Positions 14,180 to 49,277 are shown, counted from the first letter of the stretch. The stretch: 51,333 bases of DNA from an uncultured Ramlibacter sp. (GCA_964620025.1 CAZUJD010000001.1:1-51333); one strand, 5' to 3'. Translations and numbers: made by a program. The notes: generated by a model from the letters alone, not told the origin.

Positions 14180-14207
14180 AGAATCGTGTGATTCAAAAAA
14201 GCCTCCA

Positions 14208-15248: not shown

Positions 15249-15307
15249 GGTAAGAACATCCGCCGCGGGACGACGCACGTATTGCAAGCAGCTTTCCCGA
15301 ATCGACC

Positions 15308-16513: not shown

Positions 16514-18147
16514 CCCGGCGCGCGCTGTGGCTGCCCGCCCTGCTGGCGCTGCTGGCGGCCGTGCCCGTGGGCTGGGCGGCCTTGTTGGCAGCTGGCGCGG
16601 CGCTGAACGTGCAGGCCTGGCAAGACCTGTGGCTGCAACCCCAATGGCCGCGTGCCCTGGCCATCACGCTGTGGACAGGCCTGGCCGCCACCGCGTTGTC
16701 GGTGGTGCTGACGGCCTGGGTGCTGTCGCGCAGCTTTCCCGGGGCGTTGTGGCAGCGCGTGGTCCAGTCCCTGCCGCCCATGCTGGCCGTGCCGCATGCG
16801 GCGTTTGCGATCGGCCTGGCCTTCCTGATCGCGCCCAGCGGCTGGCTGCTGCGCGCCGTGTCGCCCTGGGCCACCGGCTTTGACGCACCGCCCCCCTGGC
16901 CCACCACGCAGGACCCCTGGGGCCTGGGACTGATCGCCGTGCTGGTGGCCAAGGAGGTTCCCTTCCTGTTGTGGGCCGCAGCCACCGAGCTGCAGCGCGC
17001 CGACACAGGTGCACGCTGGGCGCGCGAACTGGACGCGGCCCGCAGCATGGGCTATGCGACTCAGCATGCCTGGTGGCGCGTACTGTGGCCCCAGCTGTGG
17101 CCTCGGCTGTGGGCACCGCTGGTGGCGGTGCTGGCGTACAGCCTGACCGTCGTTGACATAGCACTGGTCATCGGCCCGCAAAACCCGCCCACCCTGGCCG
17201 TGCTGTCCTGGCAGTGGCTGCTTGACGCCGATGCCGCTGTCAATGCCCGGGGGGCTGCCGCGGCCTGGTTGCTGGCCGCCGTGGTGGCCGGACTGGCCAC
17301 TGCGCTGTGGACGCTGCGCCATGCCTCACCCTGGCGGGCGCGATGGACCGCGGGAGACCGGGGAAACAACAGGGGCCAAACAGCGCCCCGCGGATTCCCG
17401 CTGCTGGCACTGGCCGCGCTGTACGGCGGCGTGATGCTGGCACTGGCTGCTGGCAGCCTGGCCGGCGCCTGGCCGTTCCCGCAGCTATGGCCACAGGTGT
17501 GGAGCCTGCAGGCCTGGCAATCCGTGATGTCCAGCGCCGGTACCTTGTGGACCACGCTGGCCCTGGCCGCGATCAGCGCAAGCACCGCACTGGTATGGGC
17601 CGTTGCCTGGCTGGAATACGCGCCGCCGGCCTGGGACGCCCGGTTGCGCAGGCTGGTGTACTTGCCGCTGCTGCTGCCGACGGTGCTGTGGGTGGTCGGT
17701 CTGCACCGTCTGGCGCTGGCGTGGAACCTGGATGCGCGTTTTGCCGGCCTGTGGCTGGCCCACAGCCTGGCTGCGCTGCCGTATGTGCTGATCGCCCTGA
17801 GCCCGGCCTACCTGGGCTTTGACGCCCGGTATGCGCAAATCGCCGCGACACTGCGACAAAGCCGCCTGGCATTCCTGGTACGCATCAAGTGGCCCCTGCT
17901 GCGCGCATCCTTGCTGGCTGCACTGGCCGTGGGTTTTGCCGTCAGCGTGGCGCAGTATCTGCCCACCCTGTTTGTCGGTGGCGGGCGCTTCAACACCGTG
18001 ACGACCGAGGCCGTCACGCTGGCCAGTGGTGCCCAGCGCACACTGACGGCAGCCTATGCCTGGTTGCAGTGGCTGCTGCCCGCCCTGGCGTTTGCGCTGG
18101 CAGCCTGGGCCGGCAAGCCCAGAAGGTTTGCAAGGAGCGACGCATGA
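16489..18147 (+). CDS. ABC transporter permease, YnjC-like (duplicated, two permease modules in one chain)
   Basis: 552 aa, very hydrophobic, about 12 predicted TM segments. Located between the SBP and the ATPase. Confidence 0.75.
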   Translation: MAAALRAVARRALWLPALLALLAAVPVGWAALLAAGAALNVQAWQDLWLQPQWPRALAITLWTGLAATALSVVLTAWVLSRSFPGALWQRVVQSLPPMLAVPHAAFAIGLAFLIAPSGWLLRAVSPWATGFDAPPPWPTTQDPWGLGLIAVLVAKEVPFLLWAAATELQRADTGARWARELDAARSMGYATQHAWWRVLWPQLWPRLWAPLVAVLAYSLTVVDIALVIGPQNPPTLAVLSWQWLLDADAAVNARGAAAAWLLAAVVAGLATALWTLRHASPWRARWTAGDRGNNRGQTAPRGFPLLALAALYGGVMLALAAGSLAGAWPFPQLWPQVWSLQAWQSVMSSAGTLWTTLALAAISASTALVWAVAWLEYAPPAWDARLRRLVYLPLLLPTVLWVVGLHRLALAWNLDARFAGLWLAHSLAALPYVLIALSPAYLGFDARYAQIAATLRQSRLAFLVRIKWPLLRASLLAALAVGFAVSVAQYLPTLFVGGGRFNTVTTEAVTLASGAQRTLTAAYAWLQWLLPALAFALAAWAGKPRRFARSDA

Positions 18148-18764
18148 GCCTGCGGATCGAGGTACGCAGCCTGGCCCTGGGTACAACCAGGCTGGTGCAC
18201 GGCCTGCAACTGGATGTACCGCCCGGCAGGGTCCATACGGTGATGGGCGACAGCGGTTCCGGCAAATCCAGCCTGCTGGCGGCCGTGTGCGGCACGCTGG
18301 CACCCGCGTTCAGCTTTGAAGGCCACATCACGCTCAACGGCCGGCGCATCGATACGCTGCCAACCGAAGCGCGGCGCGTGGGCATCCTGTTTCAGGACGA
18401 CTTGCTGTTCGCCCACATGACCGTGCGCGAAAACCTGCTGTTTGCCGTACCACCCGGACCGCGCGGCCTGCGGGAGGCCGCCGTCGCGCAGGCCCTGGCC
18501 GACCTTGAAATGCCGGGCTTTGCCCATGCGGACCCGGCCACGCTGTCTGGCGGACAGCGGGCCCGCGTGTCGCTCATGCGGGCCTTGCTGGCGCAGCCCG
18601 GGGCCCTGTTGCTGGACGAACCTTTTTCACGGCTGGATGCGGCATTGCGCCAGCGCATGCGTGATTTCGTGTTCGACACAGTGCGCCAGCGCGCCATCCC
18701 GGCGTTGCTGGTCACACATGACCAGGCGGACGTGGCAGACCCTGCGAGCCTGACGCGTCTTTAG
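18144..18764 (+). CDS. ABC transporter ATP-binding protein, YnjD-like
   Basis: Start at ATG 18144 (ATGA overlap). Walker A GDSGSGKSS, signature LSGGQRARV, Walker B LLLDEPFSRLD. Confidence 0.88.
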   Translation: MSLRIEVRSLALGTTRLVHGLQLDVPPGRVHTVMGDSGSGKSSLLAAVCGTLAPAFSFEGHITLNGRRIDTLPTEARRVGILFQDDLLFAHMTVRENLLFAVPPGPRGLREAAVAQALADLEMPGFAHADPATLSGGQRARVSLMRALLAQPGALLLDEPFSRLDAALRQRMRDFVFDTVRQRAIPALLVTHDQADVADPASLTRL

Positions 18765-35791: not shown

Positions 35792-35905
35792 GAGGGTCTC
35801 CTTCGTGTGAAATCGCAATAAGGGCTCCACCATACGCGTGCGTGACATCTTAAAAAATCAGCATCAGACTTCAATTGATTTAGGAAAAACCTGCAAATCA
35901 AGCCA

Positions 35906-35931
35906 CCAACCCGACACCTGCTGCGGGTTGG
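35906..35931 (-). terminator. Stem-loop immediately after the last gene of the kinase/GT/hydrolase operon (8-bp stem CCAACCCG/CGGGTTGG)
   Basis: Inverted repeat 35906-35913 / 35924-35931. The downstream minus-strand sequence is moderately T-rich (TGGCTTGATTTGCAGGTTTTT). Confidence 0.45.
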
Positions 35932-35932
35932 T

Positions 35933-36934
35933 TCAGTGCCGCAAGGCAGCAAACAGCGCGTTGAAAATCGCGTCGCGATCCACGCCATGGGCCTCGCGCA
36001 TCCAGTGCCGTCCTAGCTGCGCCTGCCAGCGCCTGTCGTTGTCCAGCAACGGCGTACGCACAAACTCACTGGGCACCCAGGCAGGTCGGATCGCCCAGGC
36101 GATGCAGATCAGATCCCAGATCACCCAGCTGTGCGGCTCGCCCGCTTGCGTTGGGTTGGCGCCCAGAATGGACCACAACGGGTTGTGGGTGAACAGCTGG
36201 TGCAGGTAGCGGCCCATGGGCCCACTGCCCTGCACGTAACGCTCCATCTCGGCCAGCGACAGGCGCAGCTGCGCGCCCACGTGATAGCCGGGCAGATACA
36301 CATGGGGCACGCCGCTGTCCAGCAGCCACTGGCTGGCCCACAGGTCCTGCTCCAGATTGAAGCTGTGGTTCACGTGCGGCGCGTGGCTGGGATAGCCGCT
36401 GGTCCACACGACCACGATGCGCTGCGCGATCTCGGGTGCCAGCAGCAGGGCACTGGCAATGTTGGTCACGCAGCCCAGGGCCAGCACATACAGCGGTGGC
36501 CCGTCAGGGTCATGCTCGCGTGCGGTGGCAATCAGGTGGTCCACCGCCTCACTGCGCACCGGCGCGTGTGGGTGTGCCATGTAGGCGGTTGCGCCACGGA
36601 ACACCCGGCCCTCGTGCGGCAAGCCCAGCAGGTCATGGACCTTGATGATTTCCTGGTAGCTGCGCTCCATGCCTTCTGCCGGCGGGTTGAAAGGCGGCGC
36701 ATCGGGCGCCGCAGCCGGATAACTGGCGCGCCGGTGCGCAAATGAAAACGGAACTGCATAGACAGCCGCCACGTCCAGCTGCAAAGGACTGCGCAGTGCC
36801 CAGGCCAGGGCAAACTGGTCGTCGATTTCGTTGGCGGCATCGGTGTCGATGACCACGCGCACACGGCCGGCAGGCAGGGCCAGCCGGTCGCGGTACCAGT
36901 CGTCCGGCCGCTGCAGTTTCAGGGCGTCAATCAA
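35933..36934 (-). CDS. Inosine-uridine-preferring nucleoside hydrolase-like protein (divergent)
   Basis: Start set at TTG 36934 (AGGAGA 6 nt upstream, TTGA overlap with the upstream stop). N-terminal Asp cluster VVIDTDAANEIDDQFAL resembles the IU-NH DxDxxxDD motif with a 2-residue expansion. Confidence 0.75.
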   Translation of the reverse strand: MIDALKLQRPDDWYRDRLALPAGRVRVVIDTDAANEIDDQFALAWALRSPLQLDVAAVYAVPFSFAHRRASYPAAAPDAPPFNPPAEGMERSYQEIIKVHDLLGLPHEGRVFRGATAYMAHPHAPVRSEAVDHLIATAREHDPDGPPLYVLALGCVTNIASALLLAPEIAQRIVVVWTSGYPSHAPHVNHSFNLEQDLWASQWLLDSGVPHVYLPGYHVGAQLRLSLAEMERYVQGSGPMGRYLHQLFTHNPLWSILGANPTQAGEPHSWVIWDLICIAWAIRPAWVPSEFVRTPLLDNDRRWQAQLGRHWMREAHGVDRDAIFNALFAALRH

Positions 36935-38235
36935 TGCGTTTCTCCTTGGCGCTGGTGCTGCAGCCGCGCCCAGTCTGCTGGCTCGTCCACGTCCCACAGT
37001 GGGGGCATCTCCTGCCAGCGGGCACCCGCCGCCAGCAGCCGTTCGCGAGTTTGCGCCATCACCCGCGCAGTGCTCCAGTCGATGCCTTCAAACACCAACG
37101 GCAACGGCCGGCTCATGCCGATCAGCACATAGCCGCCGTCTTCGGCGGGAATCAGCACTGCGTCATGGTGTTGCAGCACATCGGCAGCCTGTTGCAACAC
37201 CTGGGGTGTGAGTACCGGGCAGTCCGTGCCCACGATCAGCAGCGGCATGCCGCGCACACCGGCAAAATGCCGGCGCATGACCTCGCCCATGCGCATCCCC
37301 AGGTCGCCGCCGGGCTGCGGCACACAGTCCACACCATGCCGCGCTGCCAGTGCGCTGAAAAACCGGTGCTGCACTGCGGGGGCGCACCACAGGATCACGG
37401 GGCCCGTCGCGGCAGCACGCGCCGTGATCAGCGTCTGCAAGGCAAAACCGCGCTGGGCCCGGGCTGCGCCTGCCGCACCCAGCGCGGGGATCAGCCGGGT
37501 TTTGGCCAGACCGGGTACCGGCGCCTTGGCCAGGACGGCCACCGCAGCCGGCGCTCGACCGTTGTAGCCGTACCGCGCGGCCAGCGCCTGCGGTTCGGCC
37601 CCCAGGAAGTACGCCGCGCGCAGCCGCCACATGAGCACAATGGTGCGCCACAGGCCATGCTGATCCCAGCGCCGTCCGGAGGTGGTCACCCTGGCGGACA
37701 GACAGGCTGGCGCCCCCACCCGCCGCAGGCGGCGGCAAAGGTCGACGTCCTCCATGAGCGGTTGTGGGGCAAAGCCGCCTGCAGCCTGGAACACCGCACG
37801 CCGCACAAACAGGGCCTGGTCGCCGGTCGCGATGCCGGTGATGCGGGATCGCACGTTCATCAGCGCTGCCACCACGGGCAACAGCGGGTGTTGGCCCTGG
37901 ATACGCACGTCAAAGCGCCCCCATGCGTGCCCCGCCTGCATCGCCTGCGCAACCAGTGCATCGGCTTGCGGCGGCAATTCGGTGTCGGCATGCAGGAACA
38001 GCAGGGTGTCAGCCCGTGCGGCACAGGCCCCGGCGTTCATTTGTGCGGCTCGCCCTCGCGGCGCAACCAGCACCCGGTCGGCCAGCGCATGGGCTGCGGC
38101 CGTGCTGCCGTCGGTGCTGCCGCCGTCCACCACCAAGAGCTGCACACCCCGCGCACGCAGGGCCTGCAGCGACTGGAGCCGCCGTGCCAGGTCGGCGCCT
38201 TCATTGAGTACCGGCATGATGACGGCCAGCGTCAT
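36931..38235 (-). CDS. Fusion protein: GT2 glycosyltransferase (aa 1-~228) + DUF2064 nucleotidyl/glycosyl-transferase-like domain (aa ~232-434)
   Basis: N-terminal half: VIMPVLNE, VVDGGSTDGS, LFLHADT, GDQALFVRR, PLMEDVDLCRRL. C-terminal half: VLAKAPVPGLAKTRL, GGDLGMRM, IVGTDCP, AEDGGYVLIG, IDWST. Resemblance to TIGR04283 + TIGR04282 is from memory. Confidence 0.8.
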   Translation of the reverse strand: MTLAVIMPVLNEGADLARRLQSLQALRARGVQLLVVDGGSTDGSTAAAHALADRVLVAPRGRAAQMNAGACAARADTLLFLHADTELPPQADALVAQAMQAGHAWGRFDVRIQGQHPLLPVVAALMNVRSRITGIATGDQALFVRRAVFQAAGGFAPQPLMEDVDLCRRLRRVGAPACLSARVTTSGRRWDQHGLWRTIVLMWRLRAAYFLGAEPQALAARYGYNGRAPAAVAVLAKAPVPGLAKTRLIPALGAAGAARAQRGFALQTLITARAAATGPVILWCAPAVQHRFFSALAARHGVDCVPQPGGDLGMRMGEVMRRHFAGVRGMPLLIVGTDCPVLTPQVLQQAADVLQHHDAVLIPAEDGGYVLIGMSRPLPLVFEGIDWSTARVMAQTRERLLAAGARWQEMPPLWDVDEPADWARLQHQRQGETH

Positions 38236-39308
38236 GGCGAAAGCGCCCCGCCCAGCGCAAGCTCCAGCATGTCGAATTCTTCGCGCATGCGGGCCACCAC
38301 CTCCGCGCTCAGGTAGTGGTCCACCCGGTTGCGCACATGTGCCACCAGTGCGGCGTCGCTGTGGCCGGCGGACCAGTCCTCACCCAGGTCATCGGCGGGG
38401 GCATCGGCAGCCGACAGCACGCGCCATTTGGCGCACCAGGTGACGGACCACAGCCACATGGCTCGGCGTAACGGCACATGCCAGGCCTGCGCCGGCCCGG
38501 CCACACGCGGGCCGACGGCGTCCGCCCAGGTGGCATAGGCGCCACGCACCTGCCCGGGCGTCAGCTCGGCGCGGGTTTCGATGTCCCAGGTGGTGGAGGT
38601 GTAGAGCGTGGCATGGGCAATGTCCAGCGCAGGGTAGCTGTAGCGGCACTTTTCCAGGTCCACCAGAACGGCGCGGCCGCTGTCCTTGACGATGAAGTTC
38701 CCCGGATGGCCGTCGAATGCGATCAGGTGCCGCGGCGGCCGGTCGTCGGCTGCGCACAGCGCGTTCAGCCGCTGCAATTCCTGCGTCACGGCCTGCGCCA
38801 CGCTGGCGGGCACAGCAGCTGCGGCAAGGTACTGCGCCTGGCCGGCCAGCTCCTCATACAGAGCTGCCAGTGCATCGCCGTCATCCAGCAGCGGCCGGCG
38901 CGCCTGGGGCGACGGCAGGGCCAGGGCGTGCAGCGCCGCCAGGGCCTGCACGATGGCAGGCAAGTCTGCCGGCAACACGGCGGTGCGCCCCGTGATTTCC
39001 TGCACCAGCAGAGCCCCGCGCGGCAGTACGGCCGACGGGGCCAGCACACCGCTCAGCCGCGGCGCATGGCCGCCGGCGGCGGCACGCTCAAAGCATGCCG
39101 CCTGGTAGGCCAGGTTGTCGGCCGGGTTCAGGCCCATCTGGCTTTGCTTGGGTATGCGTGCCAGCAGGCCGCTGCCGGTGATGCGCACGTGGTCGTGCGC
39201 CAGACCCTTGTCGGCCAGCCGCACCAGTGCGGCGCCGGCCCAGGGACTGCCGTCGTCGCGCAGGGATGCGGCCAGGCGGGTGGTCAGGGTGGCGCTGTCG
39301 TCACGCAT
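38232..39308 (-). CDS. Phosphotransferase of the APH/choline-kinase/MtnK fold
   Basis: 358 aa. ARIPK (ATP Lys), catalytic loop FDGHPGNFIV, metal-binding VLVDLE. ATGA overlap with the downstream gene. Confidence 0.8.
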   Translation of the reverse strand: MRDDSATLTTRLAASLRDDGSPWAGAALVRLADKGLAHDHVRITGSGLLARIPKQSQMGLNPADNLAYQAACFERAAAGGHAPRLSGVLAPSAVLPRGALLVQEITGRTAVLPADLPAIVQALAALHALALPSPQARRPLLDDGDALAALYEELAGQAQYLAAAAVPASVAQAVTQELQRLNALCAADDRPPRHLIAFDGHPGNFIVKDSGRAVLVDLEKCRYSYPALDIAHATLYTSTTWDIETRAELTPGQVRGAYATWADAVGPRVAGPAQAWHVPLRRAMWLWSVTWCAKWRVLSAADAPADDLGEDWSAGHSDAALVAHVRNRVDHYLSAEVVARMREEFDMLELALGGALSP

Positions 39309-39389: not shown

Positions 39390-39950
39390 TCAGCACAGCA
39401 CAGCGGCTTCGATCTGGCGGCGGGCCCGGTGCAGGCGCACAAACATGGCATCGGGCGTGATACCCAGCTGGCGGCAGACCGTTTCGGTCGGCTCGTCGTC
39501 TATCGCACGGCGCCACATCACGTCACGCAAGGCGGCGGGCAGCCGGTCGATGCAGGCCAGCGTGCGGGCCAGCCGCTCGCGTTGCTCGGCCTTTTCTTCG
39601 GGGCGCGGGGCGCTGCAGGCGGTGTCGTGACGGTCCCAGGCGTCGTCATCGTCGTCACGCGAAACGTCCAGCGCGCAGTAGCGCATGCCCTGACGCTGCA
39701 GGTCGGTCACCTTGTGCAGCAGGATGCCGGTCAGCCAGGTTCGCAGGGCGCTGCGTCCGCCAAACCGCGCGCGGCCAGCCAGCACCGCCTCGAACACGTC
39801 CTGCACGGCGTCTTCGGCCAGTACCGGGTCGCGCAGCTTGTTGCGGGCCACGCGCAGCAGGTAGGTGCGGTGCTGGTGCAGCTGGGCGCCGTCTACGGCG
39901 CAGTCCAGGGGAGTCAGGGCTTCGGTCTGGGCGGAAGTGGGGGCTTGCAT
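39390..39950 (-). CDS. ECF-type sigma-70 family sigma factor
   Basis: Start at ATG 39950. Region 2 DAVQDVFEAVLAGRARFGGRSALRTWLTGILLHKV. Region 4 LPAALRDVMWRRAIDDEPTETVCRQLGITPDAMFVRLHRARRQI. Acidic linker with DDDDD. Confidence 0.85.
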   Translation of the reverse strand: MQAPTSAQTEALTPLDCAVDGAQLHQHRTYLLRVARNKLRDPVLAEDAVQDVFEAVLAGRARFGGRSALRTWLTGILLHKVTDLQRQGMRYCALDVSRDDDDDAWDRHDTACSAPRPEEKAEQRERLARTLACIDRLPAALRDVMWRRAIDDEPTETVCRQLGITPDAMFVRLHRARRQIEAAVLC

Positions 39951-40070: not shown

Positions 40071-40796
40071 ATGGAGCCCATGAAACGCGTCCTCATTGCT
40101 GAAGACCAGACCGATATCCGGGACCTGCTGGCGCTGAACCTGCAGGGCGCCGGCTACCAGGTCGAACAGGCCAGCGACGGGCGCGAGGCCCTGGCGGCGC
40201 ATGACCGCCTGCCAGCCGACCTGCTGGTGCTGGACCTGATGATGCCGAACATGGACGGCCTGGACGTGTGCAAGGCGCTGCGCGCGCGGGGTTGCACCAC
40301 TCCCATCCTCATGCTCACCGCCAAATCCACCGAGCTGGACCGGGTGCTGGGCCTGGAGCTGGGCGCCGACGACTACCTGACCAAGCCGTTCTCACTGGCC
40401 GAGCTGCTGGCGCGGGTCAAAGCGCTGTTGCGACGGGCCGAGCTGGTGCGGGCCGCCAGTACGAACGCAGCCGACCCGGTAGATGCATCCATCCACAATG
40501 GCGAATTGGAGATCCAGCCGGCCAAACGCCAGGTGCGCCTGCGCGGCGCGGCCGTGGAGTTCACCGCGCTGGAGTTCGACCTGCTCCTGCACTTTGCGCG
40601 GCATCCGGGTCGGGTGTTTTCGCGCGGGCAGCTGCTCAACGCCGTGTGGGGCTACACGCACGACGGCTATGAGCATACGGTCACCACCCATATCAACCGC
40701 CTGCGCGCCAAGCTCGAGGCAGACCCGCTCAAACCCCAGATCATCCTGACGGTACGCGGCGCGGGGTACCGCATGCGGGAAACCGGGCGCTCATGA
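40071..40796 (+). CDS. OmpR/PhoB family response regulator
   Basis: Receiver domain (LIAEDQ..., DLLVLDLMMP, K in LTAKS). Winged-helix C-terminus (LEFDLLLHFARHPGRVFSRGQLL...TVRGAGYR). Alternative start at 40080. Confidence 0.92.
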   Translation: MEPMKRVLIAEDQTDIRDLLALNLQGAGYQVEQASDGREALAAHDRLPADLLVLDLMMPNMDGLDVCKALRARGCTTPILMLTAKSTELDRVLGLELGADDYLTKPFSLAELLARVKALLRRAELVRAASTNAADPVDASIHNGELEIQPAKRQVRLRGAAVEFTALEFDLLLHFARHPGRVFSRGQLLNAVWGYTHDGYEHTVTTHINRLRAKLEADPLKPQIILTVRGAGYRMRETGRS

Positions 40797-42322
40797 GCGT
40801 GCGCCTGAAGATCGCCCTGACGATCCTGCTGGCGGGCCTGCTCACCGCCGTCGGCGTGCTGGTGACCGTGGTGCTGGCGTTCCAGCGGTTCGAGTACGAA
40901 TCGGCCTACCAGCGGGCCAATGCCTTCCTGCAGCGCGTAGCCCAGCAGCATCCCGAGCTTCTGGAGTCCCACCGCCGCGCACCCGATCAGGTTGCGGCCT
41001 TCCTGCGCAACCTGGTGCTGTACGAACCCGGCGTGCGCCTGTACCTGCTCGACGCCCAAGGCGCGGTGCTGGCGGCCTCCGGTGATGTGAGTCTGCCCCC
41101 AGGTTACCGCGTACCGATGGCGCCGGTGCGTCAAGCCACTGGTGCGCAACCGGTCACCTATGTCATGGGCACCGACCCGGCCGACCCGGCCAAGCCCGCA
41201 GTGGTGGCGGCCTGGCCGCTGCGCCAGCAGCTGATCCGCAACGACGCCGCGGTGGACGGCTTCCTGTACTTTGTCTGCCAGCCCATGCCATTCAGCGCGG
41301 AACGGGTGGCCACGCTGCGCGGCACACTGGCCCAGCCGGGGCTGATGATGATCCTGCTGGTGGTGGTGGGCATGGCGGTGCTGGCAGCCTGGGTCACCGC
41401 CACTGTGACACGCCCCCTGGCGCGGCTGACGGCCGCTGTCAGCGAGGTCACGCGTGACGGCCTGGATGGCCCGGCCCCCGCCGCTCCCCTGCCCGCGCTG
41501 GCCCGGGTGCCGGGCACCGACGCGCGGGATGAGTTTGGCCAGCTGGCGCGCGGCATGCAGGCCATGCTGCAAACCCTGCGCAGCCAGTGGGTCACGCTGC
41601 GCCGGCTCGACCATTTCCGCCGCGAGGGGGTCAGCAACCTGTCGCATGACCTGCGTTCACCGCTGACGGCCACCACCGCCTGCCTGGAAACGCTGGACAA
41701 CCGCTGGGCTGATCCGCAGCGCACCACCGACCTTGACGCGGACCGCGAGCTGATCGGGGTGGCCTTGCGCAACACCCGCAACGCCGCCCGCCTGGTGCAG
41801 GCCATGGGCGACCTGGCCCAGCTGGACGAGCCCAGCTTCGAGCTGCGCACCGAAGAACTGGCGCTGGACGACCTGCTCAACGACGTCGCCATGCGGTTTG
41901 CCGCGCGAGCCACCGCGCAGGGCGTGACGCTGACAGCGCAGGAGACCGCGCTGCATGCCCGGGTCGATGTGGAGCTGATCGAGCGGGCGCTGGCCAACCT
42001 GGTGGAGAACTCGCTGAAGTTCACGCCCGCCGGCGGGCGCATCACGCTGCAGGCCCACCAGGCCAACGGCTGGCTGCAGCTGGGCGTGTGCGACAGCGGC
42101 GCGGGCATTGCGGCGGCCGACCAGCCGCACCTGTTCGACCGCTTCTACCAGGCCCGCCACAGCGCGGCACCAGCCACGGGCGAAGGCGGCAAGGGCCTGG
42201 GCCTGGCGATCGTCAAGCGCATTGCCGAGCTGCACGACGGCACGGTGGCCATAGACAGCCGCGAAGGTGCGGGCACCACCGTCACGCTCCGGCTGCCTGC
42301 GCCAGGCCCTGCACTCCAATGA
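40793..42322 (+). CDS. Sensor histidine kinase (2 TM, periplasmic loop, HAMP, HisKA, HATPase_c)
   Basis: H-box SNLSHDLRSPLT, N-box LVENSLKFT, G-boxes DSGAGI and GKGLGLAIV. ATGA overlap with the regulator. Confidence 0.92.
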   Translation: MSVRLKIALTILLAGLLTAVGVLVTVVLAFQRFEYESAYQRANAFLQRVAQQHPELLESHRRAPDQVAAFLRNLVLYEPGVRLYLLDAQGAVLAASGDVSLPPGYRVPMAPVRQATGAQPVTYVMGTDPADPAKPAVVAAWPLRQQLIRNDAAVDGFLYFVCQPMPFSAERVATLRGTLAQPGLMMILLVVVGMAVLAAWVTATVTRPLARLTAAVSEVTRDGLDGPAPAAPLPALARVPGTDARDEFGQLARGMQAMLQTLRSQWVTLRRLDHFRREGVSNLSHDLRSPLTATTACLETLDNRWADPQRTTDLDADRELIGVALRNTRNAARLVQAMGDLAQLDEPSFELRTEELALDDLLNDVAMRFAARATAQGVTLTAQETALHARVDVELIERALANLVENSLKFTPAGGRITLQAHQANGWLQLGVCDSGAGIAAADQPHLFDRFYQARHSAAPATGEGGKGLGLAIVKRIAELHDGTVAIDSREGAGTTVTLRLPAPGPALQ

Positions 42323-42359: not shown

Positions 42360-44522
42360 ATGAACACCCGCAAGATCGTTCTCATCGCGCTGCTGGCTGC
42401 GTGCGCAGCCGCCTTTTTCGCGCTGGACCTGGGCCGCTTCCTGAGCCTGGACTACCTCAAGCAAAGCCAGGCCCAGTTTGCCGCGCTGGTGCAGACGCAA
42501 CCCCTGCTGGTGGCCGGCACCTACTTCGCCATCTATGTGGCTGCCACGGCGCTGTCGCTGCCGGGTTCGGCCATCCTCACGCTGGCCGGCGGCGCGATCT
42601 TTGGCCTGGGCTGGGGGCTTGTGATCGTGTCGTTTGCGTCCAGTGTGGGGGCCACGCTGGCGTTTCTGGTGGCCCGATTTGTGCTGCGCGACACGATAGA
42701 GGCGCGCTTTGGCAACCGCCTGGCCGAGATCAACCGCGGCGTGCAGAAAGACGGCGCGTTCTACCTGTTCACCCTGCGGCTGATTCCGGTCGTGCCGTTT
42801 TTTGTGATCAACCTCGTAATGGGCCTGACCCAGATGCGGGCCTGGACGTTTTACTGGGTCAGCCAGCTGGGCATGCTGGCGGGCACGGCCGTGTTTGTGA
42901 ATGCGGGCACGCAGCTGGCGCAGATTGATTCGCTGCGCGGCATCCTGTCGCCGGGGCTGCTGGGCTCGTTTGTGCTGCTGGGCCTGTTTCCGCTGGTGGC
43001 GCGCAAACTGGTGGACGCCGTACAAAAGCGCAAGGTCTATGCACGCTGGCGCGCCGTGCGGCCCAAGACGTTTGACCGCAACCTGATCGTGATCGGCGCG
43101 GGCGCGGGCGGGCTGGTGTCGGCCTACATCGCCGCGGCGGTCAAAGCCAAAGTCACACTGATCGAATCGCACAAGATGGGTGGCGACTGCCTGAACTACG
43201 GCTGCGTGCCCAGCAAGGCACTGATCAAAAGCGCCAAGCTCGCGCACCAGATGCGCCATGGCCACCGCTACGGACTGAATGACGCGATGCCCACCTTCAG
43301 CTTTCGCGCCGTGATGCAGCGCATTCACGGTGTAATTGCCGCGATTGAGCCGCATGACAGCGTGGAGCGCTATACCGGCCTGGGCGTGGAAGTGCTGCAG
43401 GGCTACGCGAAGATCGTGAACCCCTGGACGGTGGAGATCGCGCTCAATGGCGGTGGCAAGCAGGTGCTGACCACCCGCAACATCGTCATCGCCGCAGGCG
43501 CCCGCCCCTTTGTGCCGCCGCTGCCGGGGCTGGACGATGTGGGCTACGTGACCAGCGACACGCTGTGGGACACCTTTGCCCAGCTGGACGAAGTGCCCCG
43601 GCGCCTGGTGGTGCTGGGCGGCGGGCCGATCGGCTGCGAGCTGGCGCAAAGCTTTGCGCGGCTGGGCGCCCAGGTCACGCAGGTCGAGATGGCCGCACGC
43701 ATCATGATCCGCGAGGACGAAGAAGTCTCTGCCCTGGCGCGGGATGCGCTCACGGCCGACGGCGTGCAGGTGCTGACGGGGCACAAGGCGCTGCGCTGCG
43801 AACATGACGGCGACGGGAAAGTGCTGGTGGTGGAGCACAACGGCAGTGAAAAACGCATTGCTTTTGACCAACTGCTGTGCGCCGTGGGCCGCACGGCGCG
43901 CCTCACAGGCTACGGCCTGGAAGAGCTGGGCATCCCCACCCAGCGCACGTTGGAAACCAACGAGTACCTGCAGACGATTTACCCCAACATCTATGCGGCG
44001 GGCGACGTGGCGGGGCCGTTCCAGTTCACCCATGTGGCGGCGCACCAGGCCTGGTATGCGGCGGTGAATGCGCTGTTTGGCGATTTCAGAAAATTCAAGG
44101 CCGATTACCGCGTGATCCCCTGGGCCACCTTCATCGACCCCGAGGTGGCGCGCGTGGGGCTGAACGAGCAGGACGCGAAGGAAAAGAACATCCCGTATGA
44201 AGTGACGAAGTACGGCATCGACGACCTGGACCGCGCGATTGCCGACAGCGAAGCGCATGGCTTTGTGAAGGTGCTGACCGTGCCGGGCAAGGACATCATC
44301 CTGGGCGTGACCATTGTGGGCACGCATGCCGGCGACTTGCTCGCTGAATATGTGCTGGCCATGAAGCAGGGCCTGGGGCTCAACAAGATTCTCGGCACCA
44401 TCCACACCTACCCCACGCTGGCTGAAGCCAACAAATACGCCGCCGGTGAATGGAAGCGAGCGCACCAGCCGCACCAGCTGCTGGAGTGGGTGCGCAGGTA
44501 CCACGACTGGAAGCGCGGATGA
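42360..44522 (+). CDS. Fusion: DedA/VTT (SNARE-associated) membrane domain + FAD-dependent pyridine nucleotide-disulfide oxidoreductase (class I, mercuric/glutathione reductase-like)
   Basis: aa 1-~225 form a multi-TM DedA-like domain (FTLRLIPVVPFFVINLVMG). From ~43074: GxGxxG VIGAGAGG, redox CxxxxC GGDCLNYGCVPSK (Cys codons 43188 and 43203), NAD site VVLGGGPIGCE, AAGDVAG, C-terminal dimerisation region. Confidence 0.88.
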   Translation: MNTRKIVLIALLAACAAAFFALDLGRFLSLDYLKQSQAQFAALVQTQPLLVAGTYFAIYVAATALSLPGSAILTLAGGAIFGLGWGLVIVSFASSVGATLAFLVARFVLRDTIEARFGNRLAEINRGVQKDGAFYLFTLRLIPVVPFFVINLVMGLTQMRAWTFYWVSQLGMLAGTAVFVNAGTQLAQIDSLRGILSPGLLGSFVLLGLFPLVARKLVDAVQKRKVYARWRAVRPKTFDRNLIVIGAGAGGLVSAYIAAAVKAKVTLIESHKMGGDCLNYGCVPSKALIKSAKLAHQMRHGHRYGLNDAMPTFSFRAVMQRIHGVIAAIEPHDSVERYTGLGVEVLQGYAKIVNPWTVEIALNGGGKQVLTTRNIVIAAGARPFVPPLPGLDDVGYVTSDTLWDTFAQLDEVPRRLVVLGGGPIGCELAQSFARLGAQVTQVEMAARIMIREDEEVSALARDALTADGVQVLTGHKALRCEHDGDGKVLVVEHNGSEKRIAFDQLLCAVGRTARLTGYGLEELGIPTQRTLETNEYLQTIYPNIYAAGDVAGPFQFTHVAAHQAWYAAVNALFGDFRKFKADYRVIPWATFIDPEVARVGLNEQDAKEKNIPYEVTKYGIDDLDRAIADSEAHGFVKVLTVPGKDIILGVTIVGTHAGDLLAEYVLAMKQGLGLNKILGTIHTYPTLAEANKYAAGEWKRAHQPHQLLEWVRRYHDWKRG

Positions 44523-45256
44523 AACCCGTACACACGCTGCTGGCTGCTTTGCTGGCCACCACGGCTGCGGCAGCGACGGCGCAAGCCCCCGCGCTCAGTG
44601 CTTTCTCATCCACCACCACAGGTGAAGCCGCGCCGCCGCCCTGGCGCGTGGTCGGCCTGCCGCAAGACAAGGTGCCGCTGGCACGCATCACACTGACCGA
44701 GGTCGATGGCGCGCGCGTGGCACGCCTTGCCACCGACAGCTCTTACGGCACGCTGGTGCACGACATCACGCCGTGGACGCCCACGCCCAGCGCCACGCTG
44801 GCCTGGCGCTGGCGGCTGGACCAGCCGCTGGCAGCCGCCAACCTGCGCAGCAAGGAAGGGGACGACGCGGCCCTCAAGCTGTGCGTGATGTTTGACCTGC
44901 CACTGGACGCGCTGTCATTTGGCGAGCGCACACTGATGCGCCTGGCACGCACGGTCTCTGGCGAAAAGCTGCCCGCTGCCACGCTTTGTTATGTGTGGGA
45001 TGTGTCCCAGCCCACGGGCACCGTGCTGCCCAATGCGTATTCGCGCCGCGTGCGCTTCATGGTGGTGGACGGCACAGCCAGCGTGCCCGGCCAATGGCGC
45101 AGCCACCAGCGTTCGCTGGCGGCTGACTTCCTGAAAGTGTTTGGCGACGACACGCAGCAGGTACCCCCTGCGGTCGCGGTGGTGATCGGCGCGGATTCCG
45201 ACAGCACCGCGGGCCGCAGCCTGGGCTACATCGGCGACGTGAAGATCACGCCCTGA
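44519..45256 (+). CDS. DUF3047-like secreted protein
   Basis: Start at ATG 44519 (ATGA overlap). Signal MKPVHTLLAALLATTAAAATAQA. Family assignment is from memory. Confidence 0.65.
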   Translation: MKPVHTLLAALLATTAAAATAQAPALSAFSSTTTGEAAPPPWRVVGLPQDKVPLARITLTEVDGARVARLATDSSYGTLVHDITPWTPTPSATLAWRWRLDQPLAAANLRSKEGDDAALKLCVMFDLPLDALSFGERTLMRLARTVSGEKLPAATLCYVWDVSQPTGTVLPNAYSRRVRFMVVDGTASVPGQWRSHQRSLAADFLKVFGDDTQQVPPAVAVVIGADSDSTAGRSLGYIGDVKITP

Positions 45257-46351
45257 TCACGCCTTGATTTCCCTGGCCGTGATGGTGTACTTGAACTGGT
45301 CCGGCTCCAGCGAGTCATACCGGCCATTGGCATTCTCGGCGTTGGGATACATGAAAAAGCCGATCTTTGGTCCCCGCGAACCCGGCAGCGCCACGTCATG
45401 CGCGGTGTTGAAGGCCAGCCAGTTGCCTTCCCATCCACCGAACAGCGCCTTGTACACGGGCGTGACCACCGGGTGGTTGGTGGTCTTGACCCATTCGGGT
45501 GTTTCCAGGCGCATGACCTTGCCTACATCGGCCGGGTCCATGGCCACCCAGCCGTACTGGGCGAGGAACACTTCGGCGCGGCAATGCTGTGCGCGTGCCA
45601 GATTGGCCGGGTTGCCCGACAGTTCCTTGTAACCAAAGGCCGACGGCACCAGGCGGATGCCGTACACATCGCGCGCGGGCACGCCGGCGGCACGGCACAG
45701 GCCAACAAACAGTGCGTTGATGTCGCCGCACTTGCCGCCCAGATTGCCGGTCTCCAGAATGGCCTAGATGTCACCCGTGCCGCAGACGCGTACCTTGGGT
45801 TCGCGGTAGGTGTTGTTGACCACCCAGTCGTACAGGCGGCGCACCTTGTCCACATCGGTCTGGACGCCTTTGGTTGCTTCCAGCGCGGTCTTTTTGACGA
45901 TGCCGTCGGTGGGCATCAGGTCGGTGGGCTGCGTCCAGTATTTGAGCGTGGCCGGGTCTTCCTTGACAGCCGTCTTCTGGCTCCAGTCCTGCGCGCGGTT
46001 CTGGGTGCGAAAGCGGCTGGTCAGCTCCACAAACGGCCGGGCCTCGCCTTCGGCAAACTCGGCCGACAGCATCTTGGCGCCGTACTGCGCATCGGCCGTC
46101 TGCTGCATGCTGCGGGCGTTGCCCGTCCAGGTACTTTCCAGCGACTGCTGGTAGCTGGAGTCGATCGACGGAATGGGCAGCCACACGCGGGTGGCGCCTT
46201 TGGGGTTGGCGATCTCCACCCGGGTGGTGAATTCAAACGTTCGCCAGACGCCGGGCTGGGGGTTGAATGTGCGTTCCTGGGCCAGGGCTGCGCCCGGCAG
46301 CGCGAGGGCGCCTGTAGTCTGTATGAAATGGCGACGGTTGAGCTGAAACAT
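45257..46351 (-). pseudogene. Transglutaminase-like cysteine protease family gene with Tat signal, interrupted by a single in-frame TAG (45764-45766, codon 196)
   Basis: ORFs 45764-46351 and 45257-45682 are in the same frame. Translation across the gap gives ...CGTGDI*AILETGNLGGKCGDINALFVGLCRAAGVPARDVYGIR..., which contains the core Cys. His/Asp follow in HCRAEVFLAQYGWVAMDPAD. Confidence 0.75.
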
Positions 46352-46407: not shown

Positions 46408-46953
46408 CTACCGGGAGACGGTGCGCAGCAACGGCTCAAGGAGTCGGGCTGCGTCAGGTCCGGCCCAATCATACTCACCTGTCACGACCAGACGCGGCCG
46501 GCCTGTGGCATCGCTCAGCACGGTGCTCGGAAAAATGCGGCGCGTCCACGCGCGTGCAGCCGCACCGTCGAGGTCCAGCACGATGGGCAGGCGCACTTCC
46601 ACCGATTCCAGGTAACGCCGGATACGCGGCTCGTTTTCCTGGAAATTGACGGCCAGGACGACCAGTTGCTGAGGATGCCTTTGGGCCAGTGCGTTCAGTG
46701 ACGGCATTTCTGCGCGGCAGGGCTCGCACCAGGTGGCCCAGAAGTTGAGCACCACCACCTTGCCGCGCAGGCGCTGGCCGTTCCATGCACTGCCGTCCAG
46801 CCCTGTGAGAGCCAGCGTGGGCACGGCTTTGCCGCTCGGCCAGGCCGTAATTTCGTATGTGGCGAGGGCCCGGCCCGGCATGAGCAGGACCCATGCCGCC
46901 AACAGCGCACAAAGCATGTGCCCAAGGACTGGACGGGTTGTCATGCACGCCAT
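46408..46953 (-). CDS. TlpA/ResA-like periplasmic thiol:disulfide oxidoreductase
   Basis: Thioredoxin-fold motif NFWATWCEPCRAEMP. N-terminal signal/anchor. Start could be an internal ATG. Confidence 0.85.
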   Translation of the reverse strand: MACMTTRPVLGHMLCALLAAWVLLMPGRALATYEITAWPSGKAVPTLALTGLDGSAWNGQRLRGKVVVLNFWATWCEPCRAEMPSLNALAQRHPQQLVVLAVNFQENEPRIRRYLESVEVRLPIVLDLDGAAARAWTRRIFPSTVLSDATGRPRLVVTGEYDWAGPDAARLLEPLLRTVSR

Positions 46954-46985
46954 CGTACAGGCCGGCCAAGCAGCTACGATGCGGC

Positions 46986-49277
46986 ATGCACGCCACCGAG
47001 CAACCCGTACTGCGCGACATCGTCCTCATCGGCGGTGGCCACAGCCACGTCGGTGTGCTGCGCCGGTTCGGCATGCAACCCGAGCCCGGCGTGCGCCTGA
47101 CACTGATCTGTACCGACGTGCAGACGCCCTATTCGGGCATGCTGCCGGGCTACATCGCGGGCCACTACGTGTATGACGATGTGCACATCGATCTGGCCCG
47201 CCTGGCCGTGTTGGCAGGCGCCCGCTTCTACCGGGACGAAGTCACGGGCATCGACCGTGCAGCCGGCAAGGTCCTGTGCCGAAACCGCCCGCCGGTGCCT
47301 TTTGATCTGTGCTCGATCAACACCGGGTCCACGCCGCAGGTCGCACGCGTGGCAGGAGCGGCAGACCACGTCGTACCGGTCAAGCCAATCCACCAGTTCA
47401 ACCAGCGCTGGCTCGCGCTGCTGGCACGCGTACGGGCCCATGCGGGCGTCACCACGATTGCTGTGGTGGGGGGCGGAGCCGGTGGCGTGGAGTTGACCCT
47501 GGCCATGCAGTACCGGCTGCAACGGGAACTGCAGGCCATGGGCCGCCACCCCGACGAACTGGTTTTTCATCTGTTGACCCGTGATGCACAGGTCATGGCC
47601 ACACACAACACGGGCGTACAGCGCCGCTTCGCACAGGTGCTGGCACAACGCGGCGTGCAGGTACACACCGGCGCCGAGGTCCATGCCGTCAATGCCGGGC
47701 AACTGGTCACCGCAAACGGCCAGACCCTCGCCGCCGATGAAATCGTGTGGGTCACCCAGGCAGGTGGCCCGACGTGGCTGCAGCACACCGGCCTTGCGCT
47801 GGACGACCACGGCTTTGTCCGTGTGAACGCCCAACTGCAAAGCCTCAGCGATCCCCGCATCTTTGCCGCGGGTGATGTCGCCGCTTTCGGGCCCCGTCCG
47901 CTGGAAAAGGCCGGCGTGTTTGCCGTTCGCATGGGTGCACCACTGGCTGACAACCTGCGCCGCAGCGCACGCGGCGAGGCGCTGCGCCCCTATCGTCCGC
48001 AGCGCCACTGGTTGGCCCTGATCAGCACCGGCGACCGTTATGCAGTGGCATCGCGGGGTCGGGGGCCGCTGGGCCTGGCCCTGGCCGGCGACTGGGTCTG
48101 GCAATGGAAAGACTGGATCGACCGGCGCTTCATGCGGCGCTTCAACGAATTCCCACCCATGGTTGCAACGGGCGGCGCGCCAGTGCCGGCGCAACTGGTG
48201 CTGACGGCGGACGAATCGCAGCAGGCGATTTCAGCCATTGCCATGCGCTGCGGTGGCTGCGGCGCCAAAGTCGGTGCCACCGTGCTGCAACGCGCGCTAG
48301 GTACGCTGCAGCCGGTGCACCGCGCCGATGTGCTGATCGGCCTGCACACCCCCGACGATGCGGCGGTGGTACGCGTGCCGCCCGGCAAGGCCATGGTTCA
48401 CACCGTGGATTTCTTTCGCGCATTCATTGACGACCCCTACCTGTTTGGCAAGGTCGCGGCGAACCATGCACTGGGCGATGTATTTGCCATGGGGGGGCAG
48501 CCACAGTCGGCTACCGCGGTGGTGACGGTTCCGCCGGGGCTGGAAGCCAAGGTGGAAGACCTGCTGTTCCAGATGATGACCGGCGCGATCGAAGTGCTCA
48601 ATGCCGCCCAATGCGCGCTGGTTGGCGGTCACACCGGCGAAGGCCGGGAGCTGGCGCTGGGCTTCGCGGTGAACGGCCTGGTGGACGAAGATCTGAGAAC
48701 GGTACTGCGCAAGGACACACTCAAACCCGGCGATGTGCTCGTGCTGACCAAGCCCATAGGTACTGGCACCCTGTTCGCGGCGCATGCACGCGGAGCGGCG
48801 CGGGGGCGCTGGATCGACGCCGCATTGCAGTCCATGGTCGTGTCCAACCAGCGCGGTGCGCAGATCCTGATGGCGCACGGTGCCGTGGCCTGTACGGACC
48901 TCACAGGCTTCGGCCTGCTCGGTCATCTGGTGGAAATGACCCGGCCCTCCGGCGTGGACGCCGAACTCTGGCTGCACGCGCTGCCCCTGCTGGACGGTGC
49001 CCTGGAATGCGCGGCCGCCGGCATCGCGAGTTCGCTGGCACCGGCCAACATCCGCCTTCGCCGGGCGCTGCGCAACCAGGGAGACTTCACGGACCACCCC
49101 CGTTACCCGCTGCTGTTTGACCCCCAAACCGCCGGAGGCCTGCTGGCCAGCGTGCCACCTGGTCAGGTAAACACTTGCCTGGCTGCGCTACGCGCCATCG
49201 GCTACCACCAGGCAGCTGTGATCGGGTGCGTTCTGCCGGCGAGCGACTTGCAGGAACCCATCCTTCTGAAATCTTGA
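46986..49277 (+). CDS. selD: Fusion: NDH-2/SQR-like FAD/NAD(P)H pyridine nucleotide-disulfide oxidoreductase (aa 1-~400) + selenide, water dikinase (SelD, Cys type)
   Basis: Start at ATG 46986. Rossmann motifs VLIGGGHSH and VVGGGAGGVE, plus FAAGDVA. SelD N-terminal loop MRCGGCGAKVG (Cys codon 48258-48260, Lys three residues later), then DDAAVV, GHTGEG, LTKPIGTG, DLTGFGLLGH, DPQTAGGLL. Confidence 0.88.
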   Translation: MHATEQPVLRDIVLIGGGHSHVGVLRRFGMQPEPGVRLTLICTDVQTPYSGMLPGYIAGHYVYDDVHIDLARLAVLAGARFYRDEVTGIDRAAGKVLCRNRPPVPFDLCSINTGSTPQVARVAGAADHVVPVKPIHQFNQRWLALLARVRAHAGVTTIAVVGGGAGGVELTLAMQYRLQRELQAMGRHPDELVFHLLTRDAQVMATHNTGVQRRFAQVLAQRGVQVHTGAEVHAVNAGQLVTANGQTLAADEIVWVTQAGGPTWLQHTGLALDDHGFVRVNAQLQSLSDPRIFAAGDVAAFGPRPLEKAGVFAVRMGAPLADNLRRSARGEALRPYRPQRHWLALISTGDRYAVASRGRGPLGLALAGDWVWQWKDWIDRRFMRRFNEFPPMVATGGAPVPAQLVLTADESQQAISAIAMRCGGCGAKVGATVLQRALGTLQPVHRADVLIGLHTPDDAAVVRVPPGKAMVHTVDFFRAFIDDPYLFGKVAANHALGDVFAMGGQPQSATAVVTVPPGLEAKVEDLLFQMMTGAIEVLNAAQCALVGGHTGEGRELALGFAVNGLVDEDLRTVLRKDTLKPGDVLVLTKPIGTGTLFAAHARGAARGRWIDAALQSMVVSNQRGAQILMAHGAVACTDLTGFGLLGHLVEMTRPSGVDAELWLHALPLLDGALECAAAGIASSLAPANIRLRRALRNQGDFTDHPRYPLLFDPQTAGGLLASVPPGQVNTCLAALRAIGYHQAAVIGCVLPASDLQEPILLKS

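Follow-up and report, generated by a model that had tools for sequence, protein, structure and literature searches.

A single contig of 51,333 bp, taken here in its entirety and called the window in what follows, comes from an uncultured Ramlibacter sp. (GCA_964620025.1 CAZUJD010000001.1:1-51333); its nearest named relative is a Ramlibacter metagenome-assembled genome, with 79-92% amino-acid identity across the cluster described below. Three genes on its minus strand, between positions 35933 and 39308, code for a small-molecule kinase, a fusion of a GT2 glycosyltransferase with a DUF2064 domain, and a protein with the nucleoside hydrolase (NH) fold. This operon is a variant of the gene cluster associated with the radical-SAM enzyme ArsS, in which the kinase, an importer and, here, the hydrolase replace the module made up of ArsS, ArsM, and methylthioadenosine (MTA) phosphorylase.

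The kinase gene (38232-39308; 358 aa) overlaps the fusion gene (36931-38235; 434 aa) in the ATGA at 38235-38232, and the latter overlaps the hydrolase gene (35933-36934; 333 aa from a TTG start) in the TTGA at 36934-36931. The sequence AGGAGA is read 6 nt 5' of this TTG. A longer, GTG-initiated open reading frame (ORF) of the hydrolase extends to 36997. Gene calls made independently on identical metagenome contigs agree on all three genes, on both 4-nt overlaps, and on the start that gives a 333-aa hydrolase. A preceding sequence-only reading of the locus had reported these three ORFs with the same positions and lengths, both overlaps, and the AGGAGA, and direct inspection agrees with it; the motifs it had singled out (ARIPK, FDGHPGNFIV, VLVDLE, and DTDAANEIDD) are all found in the translated products. 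The three genes form a conserved unit: the overlapping junctions are retained in relatives (L001, L004, L006, L169, and L170), and the order kinase, fusion, hydrolase is found in 4/4 hydrolase-centred contexts.

The operon follows a gene for an extracytoplasmic function (ECF) sigma factor, as had been noted earlier. This gene (39390-39950, minus strand; Sigma70_r2 and r4_2 domains and the TIGR02937 superfamily model) lies 81 nt 5' of the kinase on the same strand, with no anti-sigma gene adjoining. An ECF sigma gene is also found directly 5' of the kinase in L006-L008, L089, L090, and L098, and the operon is probably under ECF sigma control. L006 has an ECF sigma gene together with an NrsF-type anti-sigma gene at the position held by the ECF and two-component genes of the window, and in Halomonas-type loci an ECF sigma gene comes after DUF2064. 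At the other end of the operon, RNA folding places a stem-loop directly 3' of the hydrolase stop codon (approximately 35905-35932, minus strand). The stem reported by the sequence-only reading is indeed there and has 9-11 bp, but the surrounding 61 nt fold at -20.8 kcal/mol, with a z score of only -1.3 relative to shuffled sequences, and a consensus terminator scan misses the hairpin. Its role as the terminator of the operon is plausible, if statistically unremarkable.

In the fusion protein, residues 3-222 match positions 1-221 of TIGR04283 (269.3 bits, cutoff 182) and residues 232-422 match positions 1-189 of TIGR04282 (193.1 bits, cutoff 134), so both halves of the single chain recognized in the sequence-only reading are above the curated NCBIfam cutoffs. 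Pfam likewise gives GT2 and DUF2064 (116.9 bits for the latter), and the DxD-type and KTRL/GTDCP/DGGY motifs are retained. NCBIfam names both halves as glycosyltransferases of arsenosugar biosynthesis, an automatic annotation already mentioned in the sequence-only reading. The DUF2064 half matches a structural-genomics entry (3CGX, E = 1.8e-18) and, at the level of profiles, FbiD (7P97) and CofC (6BWG and 2I5E), and it scores below the cutoff of the CofC model TIGR03552 (39.1 bits, cutoff 105). It is a homolog of the CofC/FbiD guanylyltransferases, not a member of their family. These homologs act on phosphate esters, including the non-sugar compounds phospholactate and phosphoglycerate. Most loci encode GT2 and DUF2064 in two genes lying side by side, and the fusion is lineage-specific. 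Elsewhere the two are fused in both orders and, in many lineages, in triple fusions of the type GT2'-DUF2064-GT2, whose second GT2 differs from the first; the fused and triple-fused proteins include P0254, P0285, P0309, P0313, P0346, and P0364, among others. One relative of the fusion carries a membrane glycosyltransferase domain of the PMT type. The triple fusions and the PMT domain hint at a third transferase step. Ten large multi-domain relatives contain no fusion to a kinase, hydrolase, or radical-SAM domain, only to a second GT2 or to PMT.

The kinase belongs to an unnamed subfamily. It matches Pfam APH (PF01636) with 50.8 bits for a gathering threshold of 23.2, and no NCBIfam model at E ≤ 0.01. 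The catalytic Lys (K54), the DxxxxN loop (D199-N204), and the Mg-binding Asp (D217) are invariant in 34 homologs. Its AlphaFold2 (AF2) model (pLDDT 86.8) is closest in Foldseek to the choline/ethanolamine kinase family, YihE, aminoglycoside and macrolide kinases, and homoserine kinase II, with TM scores of ~0.5-0.6. The top match is 3dxq, of the choline/ethanolamine kinase family (TM 0.54-0.68), and other eukaryotic-like kinases (ELK) score similarly; the sole profile match in the PDB, choline kinase alpha, is marginal (E ~0.04). On its predicted structure this is an APH/ELK-fold kinase. The sequence-only reading had called it an APH/choline-kinase/MtnK-fold phosphotransferase, and the APH fold stands, but the likeness to MtnK is unsupported by every test: MtnK is found neither among NCBIfam matches, nor among the PDB profile matches, nor in the Foldseek top 50, and this candidate is rejected.

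The hydrolase matches Pfam IU_nuc_hydro (PF01156) with 59.5 bits (threshold 34.2), which completes the four family assignments (TIGR04283, TIGR04282, APH, and IU_nuc_hydro) made by the sequence-only reading, all above cutoff in the hidden Markov model searches. It falls far below the RihA, RihB, and RihC equivalogs (best scores 32, 21, and 16 bits, cutoffs 382-459). Its AF2 model (pLDDT 89.6) matches the NH fold with TM scores of 0.65-0.75, many NH structures being found by Foldseek at E = 1e-13 to 1e-16, at an identity of only 15-20% to any solved NH. The active site was read from the profile of the subfamily aligned to the solved enzymes. The Ca and ribose ligands are kept, since D30, D38, D39, T157, N193, and D274 are invariant in the subfamily; two of the Ca ligands are T157, in the motif GCVTNIA, through its carbonyl, and the late Asp D274, aligned to D240 of YeiK. 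The alignment also confirms the expanded Asp cluster noticed earlier: DTDAANEIDD is the DxDxxxDD fingerprint with a two-residue insertion and non-canonical spacing, in which D30, D32, D38, and D39 are invariant. A conserved Ser stands in the place of the Glu of the canonical EFN motif, a residue that binds the ribose 5'-OH. The invariant W273-D274 aligns to the His-Asp of YeiK, placing a Trp just before the last Ca-binding Asp. Trp rather than His at this position defines the purine-specific group II of NHs (PMC8910321, which names no 5'-OH ligands). Judged on this residue, the hydrolase appears to carry the group II purine-specific signature.

A shared core with two exclusive modules

The comparison covers about 165 related loci with ~10 kb on each side, drawn from the best 80 genome loci around GT2/DUF2064 relatives and the best 80 metagenome loci around kinase relatives among the matches listed. 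The loci were analysed by tblastn and by unbiased clustering of ORFs, the representatives of the clusters being named with Pfam and NCBIfam. GT2 and DUF2064 are the core of a widespread cluster, usually accompanied by a protein that joins a VTT/DedA membrane domain and a flavoprotein disulfide reductase in one chain (VTT-reductase), a DUF3047 protein, and a TIGR03169 oxidoreductase. The canonical layout, with variable members in parentheses, is (MTA phosphorylase) ArsS > VTT-reductase > (DUF547) > GT2 > DUF2064 > (DUF3047 > TIGR03169) (ArsM-like).

This core is served by two mutually exclusive modules, one with ArsS and one with the kinase. The 43 ArsS-type loci carry ArsS, to which an ArsM-like methyltransferase and MTA phosphorylase may be added, and in kinase-type loci these three are found in 0/94 within 10 kb. 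In the GT2-centred set, ArsS is present in 39/58 loci without the kinase versus 0/12 with it (Fisher p = 1e-5), and in the kinase-centred metagenome set ArsS, MTA phosphorylase, and the ArsM-like gene are each found in 0/80 loci. When the 133 loci with a full GT2 domain are considered, 63 are kinase-type, 42 ArsS-type, 28 neither, and none is both. A rough GT2 tree shows at least 6 switches between states. A representative of ArsS scores 452 bits against TIGR04167 (cutoff 300), and ArsS is tightly linked to GT2, with a median gap of ~1 kb and 41/43 within 5 kb. Two loci of Comamonadaceae with the matching divergent layout, L048 and L083, have ArsS in the very slot held by the kinase in the window.

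The kinase has its own companions. It usually comes with a YnjB-type ABC importer, found in 8/12 loci with the kinase versus 1/58 without it (p = 4e-7), and in 31/59 kinase loci of at least 9 kb. GT2 is within reach of the kinase in 50/59 loci; where at least 4 kb of sequence flanks the kinase on each side (25 loci), GT2 is present in 23, and every one of the 25 contains GT2 or the importer.

For MTA phosphorylase, a representative scores 326 bits against the equivalog TIGR01694 (cutoff 275), and the gene lies 0.6-4.5 kb from GT2 in 11 loci of several lineages (L016, L017, L019, L029, L030, L041, L057, L063, L065, L083, and L086). ArsS is present in 8 of these, and no kinase locus has the phosphorylase. 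The ArsM-like gene is in 9/43 ArsS loci. The GT2-adjacent MTA phosphorylase is a candidate for the removal of adenine in arsenosugar synthesis.

The hydrolase is confined to the kinase side, as it is present in 0/43 ArsS loci and 23/59 kinase loci. Its linkage to the kinase takes three arrangements: 3' of DUF2064 on the same strand; convergent after the kinase (GT2 > DUF2064 > kinase > < hydrolase); and ABC > kinase > < hydrolase, with GT2 out of reach. The sequence-only reading had suggested checking the co-occurrence of the four domains, and the kinase, GT2, DUF2064, and hydrolase are indeed linked in at least three gene orders, but this is not a general property of TIGR04283/TIGR04282 clusters. 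In L169 (9105-10213) the three genes stand alone, without the VTT-reductase half, and are directly followed by msrB and msrA. Another gene found with the kinase codes for a YnjF-like CDP-alcohol phosphatidyltransferase (16/59 loci, including L003, L091, L094, L100, and L104). It never occurs together with the hydrolase (0/59 kinase loci, p = 7e-5), an exclusion that suggests either two sub-routes or a split between lineages. It adjoins the importer in 18 loci, all kinase-type and none ArsS-type, and the window has no gene for it.

The wider neighborhood in the window

The operon is only one half of a larger conserved unit, whose other half is divergent. In the window the layout is TIGR03169 < DUF3047 < VTT-reductase < on one side and, on the other, (ECF >) kinase > GT2-DUF2064 > (hydrolase >). 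The VTT-reductase gene (42360-44522, plus strand) codes for 720 aa with the Pfam domains VTT_dom, Pyr_redox_2, and Pyr_redox_dim, and its class-I flavoprotein disulfide reductase part is below every NCBIfam equivalog cutoff. It is followed on the plus strand by the DUF3047 gene (44450-45256; Pfam 168.8 bits), whose true start is probably later than 44450. The next member is a fusion of the TIGR03169 oxidoreductase (499 bits, cutoff 310) with the selenophosphate synthetase SelD (TIGR00476, 297 bits, cutoff 125), at 46893-49277 on the plus strand; this is the nearby selD of the sequence-only reading, and it is the TIGR03169 half that is conserved in the cluster. Ahead of the fusion gene lies an AhpC/redoxin gene in divergent orientation (46408-46953). 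Between the two halves of the unit lie, besides the ECF sigma gene, an OmpR-type response regulator (40071-40796) and a HAMP/HisKA histidine kinase (40793-42322), both assigned by Pfam and on the plus strand, a pair that is absent at the matching position in L001, L004, and L006.

The importer of the window is further away, ~17 kb from the operon (15308-18764, plus strand). It is of the YnjBCD type, with a substrate-binding protein (511 bits against NF008633/PRK11622), a double permease, and an ATPase (ABC_tran), and its three proteins are 68-75% identical to those of the L004 importer; in many relatives the importer adjoins the kinase. Searches of the whole 51 kb with tblastn (E < 1e-3) find no gene for ArsS, an ArsM-like protein, or MTA phosphorylase, in agreement with the earlier statement that arsS and arsM are missing there.

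Among the partners of GT2 and DUF2064 the commonest is VTT-reductase, in 41/85 loci of the GT2-centred set and 30/59 kinase loci. DUF3047 recurs beside VTT-reductase or DUF2064 in 25 loci, and TIGR03169 is found in 41. Just two loci, the window and L001, have the latter fused to SelD, and no more than 7 of the ~165 have a SelD domain within 10 kb; apparent fusions in L037 and L038 were an artefact of the coverage threshold and disappear in a domain-specific test. DUF547 is present in 21 loci of the GT2-centred set and in 12 of the 25 kinase loci flanked by at least 4 kb on each side, often between VTT-reductase and GT2. In some loci, such as L084, DUF547 appears to be fused to the VTT-reductase gene or to overlap it at the end. 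No separate DUF547 gene is present in the window, where the sole tblastn match (44051-44524) overlaps the 3' end of the VTT-reductase gene. Nine alphaproteobacterial loci (L028, L031, L046, L049, L058, L064, L066, L073, and L078) are without VTT-reductase and share the order MeaB GTPase > pyroglutamyl peptidase > unknown > DUF3750 > ArsS > GT2 > DUF2064 < EamA transporter. The sequence-only reading had overlooked the conserved partners (VTT-reductase, DUF3047, TIGR03169, and the YnjB-type importer) as well as the exclusivity of the kinase and ArsS.

Two further genes of the window deserve mention. A transglutaminase-like gene (45257-46351, minus strand) is broken up into the ORFs 45257-45682 and 45764-46351. 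Its L001 ortholog is a single gene of 367 aa, 92% identical where the two match, and the break probably reflects a frameshift, a pseudogene, or an assembly error. An ORF of 1152 aa (12776-16234, minus strand) is an artefactual extension of which only the C-terminal third is an M16 peptidase, paired with an M16 gene at 11405-12766; the rest is antisense to the gene for the ABC substrate-binding protein (15308-16513).

Proposed function and alternative explanations

ArsS adenosylates dimethylarsenite to 5'-deoxy-5'-dimethylarsinoyl-adenosine (PMC13598754), which has been described as the first committed step (PMC13598754; bioRxiv 10.1101/2022.09.23.509062). In the literature searched, which is incomplete, it is the only enzyme of the ArsS cluster with a demonstrated activity, and no function is assigned there to TIGR04283, to TIGR04282/DUF2064 (one incidental mention of TIGR04282), or to the present subfamily of kinase and hydrolase. 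An earlier paper (PMC10456119) put forward, as chemistry, that adenine is lost through an 'adenosyl nucleosidase', which it leaves unnamed, and that glycosidation comes next. The sequence-only reading presented its route as previously unarticulated, and this holds for the kinase step, the activation to a nucleoside diphosphate (NDP) derivative, and the enzyme candidates, but not for base removal and glycosidation.

The explanation that we tentatively favor, and that is slightly more apt to be wrong than right, is that the operon combines a kinase/hydrolase front end with the two core transferases, and that both kinds of front end feed a phosphate ester, of one kind, to the core. In ArsS-type clusters, ArsS would make a 5'-modified adenosine and MTA phosphorylase would convert it into a 5-modified ribose-1-phosphate in one step. 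In clusters such as that of the window, a nucleoside or riboside would be obtained without ArsS, probably by import; the hydrolase would remove the purine and the kinase would phosphorylate the freed sugar, giving a like compound in two steps. The CofC/FbiD-like DUF2064 half would then join a nucleotide, probably guanosine monophosphate (GMP), to the phosphate, and the GT2 half would transfer the activated group to an acceptor, the 5' substituent being As, Se, S, or none. The order hydrolase, kinase, DUF2064, GT2 is that of the sequence-only reading, less its MtnK-like kinase. It is plausible and gains indirect support, because in ArsS-type clusters MTA phosphorylase does the job of hydrolase and kinase in one step, and because DUF2064 is CofC/FbiD-like.

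A more specific version, possible although we would sooner expect it to fail, is that kinase-type clusters serve an ArsS-independent uptake and salvage. Other organisms would produce a 5'-modified nucleoside or riboside, which would be imported, stripped of its base, phosphorylated at the anomeric position, activated as the NDP derivative of a 5-modified ribose, and transferred by GT2 to re-glycosylate an acceptor. The substrates may include, for example, arsinoyl-adenosine, arsenosugar-derived ribose, or a seleno or thio analog. If salvage of this kind is true, DUF2064 and GT2, together with the ArsS-adjacent MTA phosphorylase, would be the long-missing enzymes that lead from the product of ArsS to the arsenosugars.

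Several observations weigh against the two-front-end explanation. The loci compared are not phylogenetically independent. The kinase does not specifically resemble MtnK or any other anomeric sugar kinase; choline/ethanolamine kinases are nearest to it in fold, and it looks no more sugar-kinase-like than choline-kinase-like. Every characterized NH needs the 5'-OH (PMC8910321), and therefore a 5'-modified substrate would require an altered 5' pocket. The change from Glu to Ser in the EFN motif fits such a substrate and may be taken as a lead, if this Glu is indeed the 5'-OH ligand. The hydrolase is missing in 36/59 kinase-type loci, 16 of which carry the CDP-alcohol phosphatidyltransferase, and this subtype suggests a Kennedy-like pathway for at least some of the clusters. 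MTA phosphorylase adjoins only 8/43 ArsS loci and could be a housekeeping copy. Finally, the analysis covered only ~10 kb per side, and ArsS could lie elsewhere in the genomes of the kinase type.

The alternative that survives best, although it is unlikely, is a head-group pathway of the Kennedy/Lic type. An imported small alcohol would be phosphorylated by the kinase and converted by DUF2064 to an NDP-alcohol, as by LicC or CCT, and GT2 or the YnjF-like CDP-alcohol phosphatidyltransferase would transfer it onto a lipid or glycan, the hydrolase being accessory or unrelated. The closest solved folds and the sole PDB profile match of the kinase are indeed choline/ethanolamine kinases, the kinase is tightly linked to the YnjB-type importer, and the DUF2064 homologs use non-sugar phosphate esters. 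The CDP-alcohol phosphatidyltransferase beside the importer, in 18 loci that are all kinase-type, points the same way. However, the structural similarity of the kinase is generic (TM 0.5-0.6, 10-19% identity), and aminoglycoside, macrolide, and homoserine kinases score nearly as well. The window lacks the CDP-alcohol transferase, and since this gene and the hydrolase never coincide (0/59), the window belongs to the other subtype. A head-group pathway would also leave unexplained why, in other clusters, ArsS and MTA phosphorylase supply this core, and why a purine-type hydrolase lies beside the kinase in three gene orders.

A pathway split between distant loci is distinctly unlikely. ArsS and ArsM would then be encoded elsewhere in the genome, of which 51 kb are visible, and the hydrolase and kinase would process 5'-deoxy-5'-dimethylarsinoyl-adenosine, as the sequence-only reading had it. 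The NCBIfam names of both halves of the fusion and the demonstrated product of ArsS (PMC13598754) are in line with this, as is the fact that no named enzyme for the later steps was found in the literature searched. Yet ArsS, where present, is tightly linked to GT2 (41/43 within 5 kb), ArsS, ArsM-like, and MTA phosphorylase genes are found in 0/94 kinase-type loci within 10 kb, and the kinase holds the slot of ArsS in otherwise identical layouts, where it is accompanied by an importer instead.

It is improbable that the cluster makes or recycles a selenium or sulfur metabolite, that is, that the operon together with the TIGR03169-SelD fusion, the redoxin, and VTT-reductase handles a seleno- or thio-riboside and not an arsenical. 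The operon has a true TIGR03169-SelD fusion at a distance of 7.6 kb, the TIGR03169 half of which is conserved in the cluster, MsrB and MsrA genes come after the three genes in L169, and the E. coli ynjBCD genes lie beside a rhodanese gene. Moreover, the ArsS family includes selenoproteins (TIGR04167 name; PMC9312934). The link of the cluster to selenium is nevertheless weak: TIGR03169 is without SelD in most clusters, only 7 of the ~165 loci have a SelD domain within 10 kb and only 2 have the fusion, and the ArsM-like gene of 9/43 ArsS loci points to arsenic there. The generic database names (aminoglycoside phosphotransferase, thiamine kinase-like, purine nucleosidase) would allow an antibiotic or housekeeping kinase and a general nucleoside-salvage hydrolase to lie by chance beside a transferase gene, but this is strongly disfavored and very improbable, given the conserved overlaps of start and stop codons, the proximity of the kinase to GT2 (50/59 loci, and 23/25 with at least 4 kb on both sides, or 25/25 for GT2 or the importer), the complete triad in 4/4 hydrolase-centred contexts, a linkage that survives several rearrangements, and the scores of the hydrolase far under the RihA/B/C equivalog cutoffs.

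In aquatic food webs, much of the arsenic takes the form of arsenosugars, which are major species there. TIGR04283 and TIGR04282 proteins owe their name of arsenosugar glycosyltransferases, given to them in thousands of genomes, to association alone. The two-front-end explanation would give a testable assignment for the missing steps, in which MTA phosphorylase, or the hydrolase and kinase, lead to ribose-1-phosphate, DUF2064 to the NDP-ribose, and GT2 to the glycoside. As 63/133 loci with a full GT2 domain are kinase-type and without ArsS, the blanket annotation as arsenosugar biosynthesis is probably wrong or incomplete for such clusters of kinase and importer. The comparison also brings several proteins of unknown function, namely the VTT-reductase fusion, DUF3047, DUF547, TIGR03169, and YnjBCD, into one system.

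Comparison with known systems

The Kennedy and LicABCD pathways resemble the operon in combining a choline/ethanolamine-kinase-like fold with a nucleotidyltransferase-like domain, and the sister subtype adds the CDP-alcohol phosphatidyltransferase. The window differs in having a nucleoside hydrolase instead of that transferase, and it has no enzyme of the LicC/CCT family. In AmgK/MurU and NahK/GlmU, an APH-fold kinase makes a sugar-1-phosphate and a nucleotidyltransferase converts it to an NDP-sugar for a glycosyltransferase. The likeness here is one of pathway logic, and the nucleotidyltransferase of the window is a CofC/FbiD-like DUF2064 and not a sugar-1-phosphate uridylyltransferase.

With CofC/FbiD of F420 biosynthesis, the DUF2064 half shares detectable homology and, by analogy, would share the transfer of GMP to a phosphate ester. 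In contrast to these enzymes it is fused to GT2, has no F420 gene context, and is far under the equivalog cutoff. The hydrolase shares with group II (inosine-adenosine-guanosine, purine-specific) NHs the fold, the Ca-binding aspartates, and the Trp before the last of them, and differs by the two-residue insertion in the fingerprint, the Ser for the EFN Glu, its identity of 15-20%, and its dedication to a transferase operon, not to purine salvage.

In methionine salvage, the nucleosidase MtnN with the kinase MtnK and the phosphorylase MtnP/MTAP are alternatives that lead from a 5'-modified adenosine to a 5-modified ribose-1-phosphate. The hydrolase and kinase of the window, versus the MTAP equivalog of ArsS-type clusters, may be an analogous pair. 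The enzymes themselves are different, since the hydrolase has the Ca-dependent NH fold and not the MtnN/PNP fold, and the kinase is not of the MtnK family; downstream, nucleotidylation and transfer are proposed instead of isomerization.

The closest system remains the ArsS-associated cluster of TIGR04167, TIGR04283, and TIGR04282 (the latter two formerly the rSAM/selenodomain-associated transferases 2 and 1), and the system of the window is a variant of this cluster, which is otherwise known only through its association with ArsS. Both transferase families are common to the two, as are VTT-reductase, DUF3047, TIGR03169 and, in Comamonadaceae, the divergent layout. Instead of ArsS, an ArsM-like protein, and MTA phosphorylase, the window has the kinase in the slot of ArsS and the hydrolase after the transferases, its GT2 and DUF2064 are fused, and the YnjB-type importer is associated with it.

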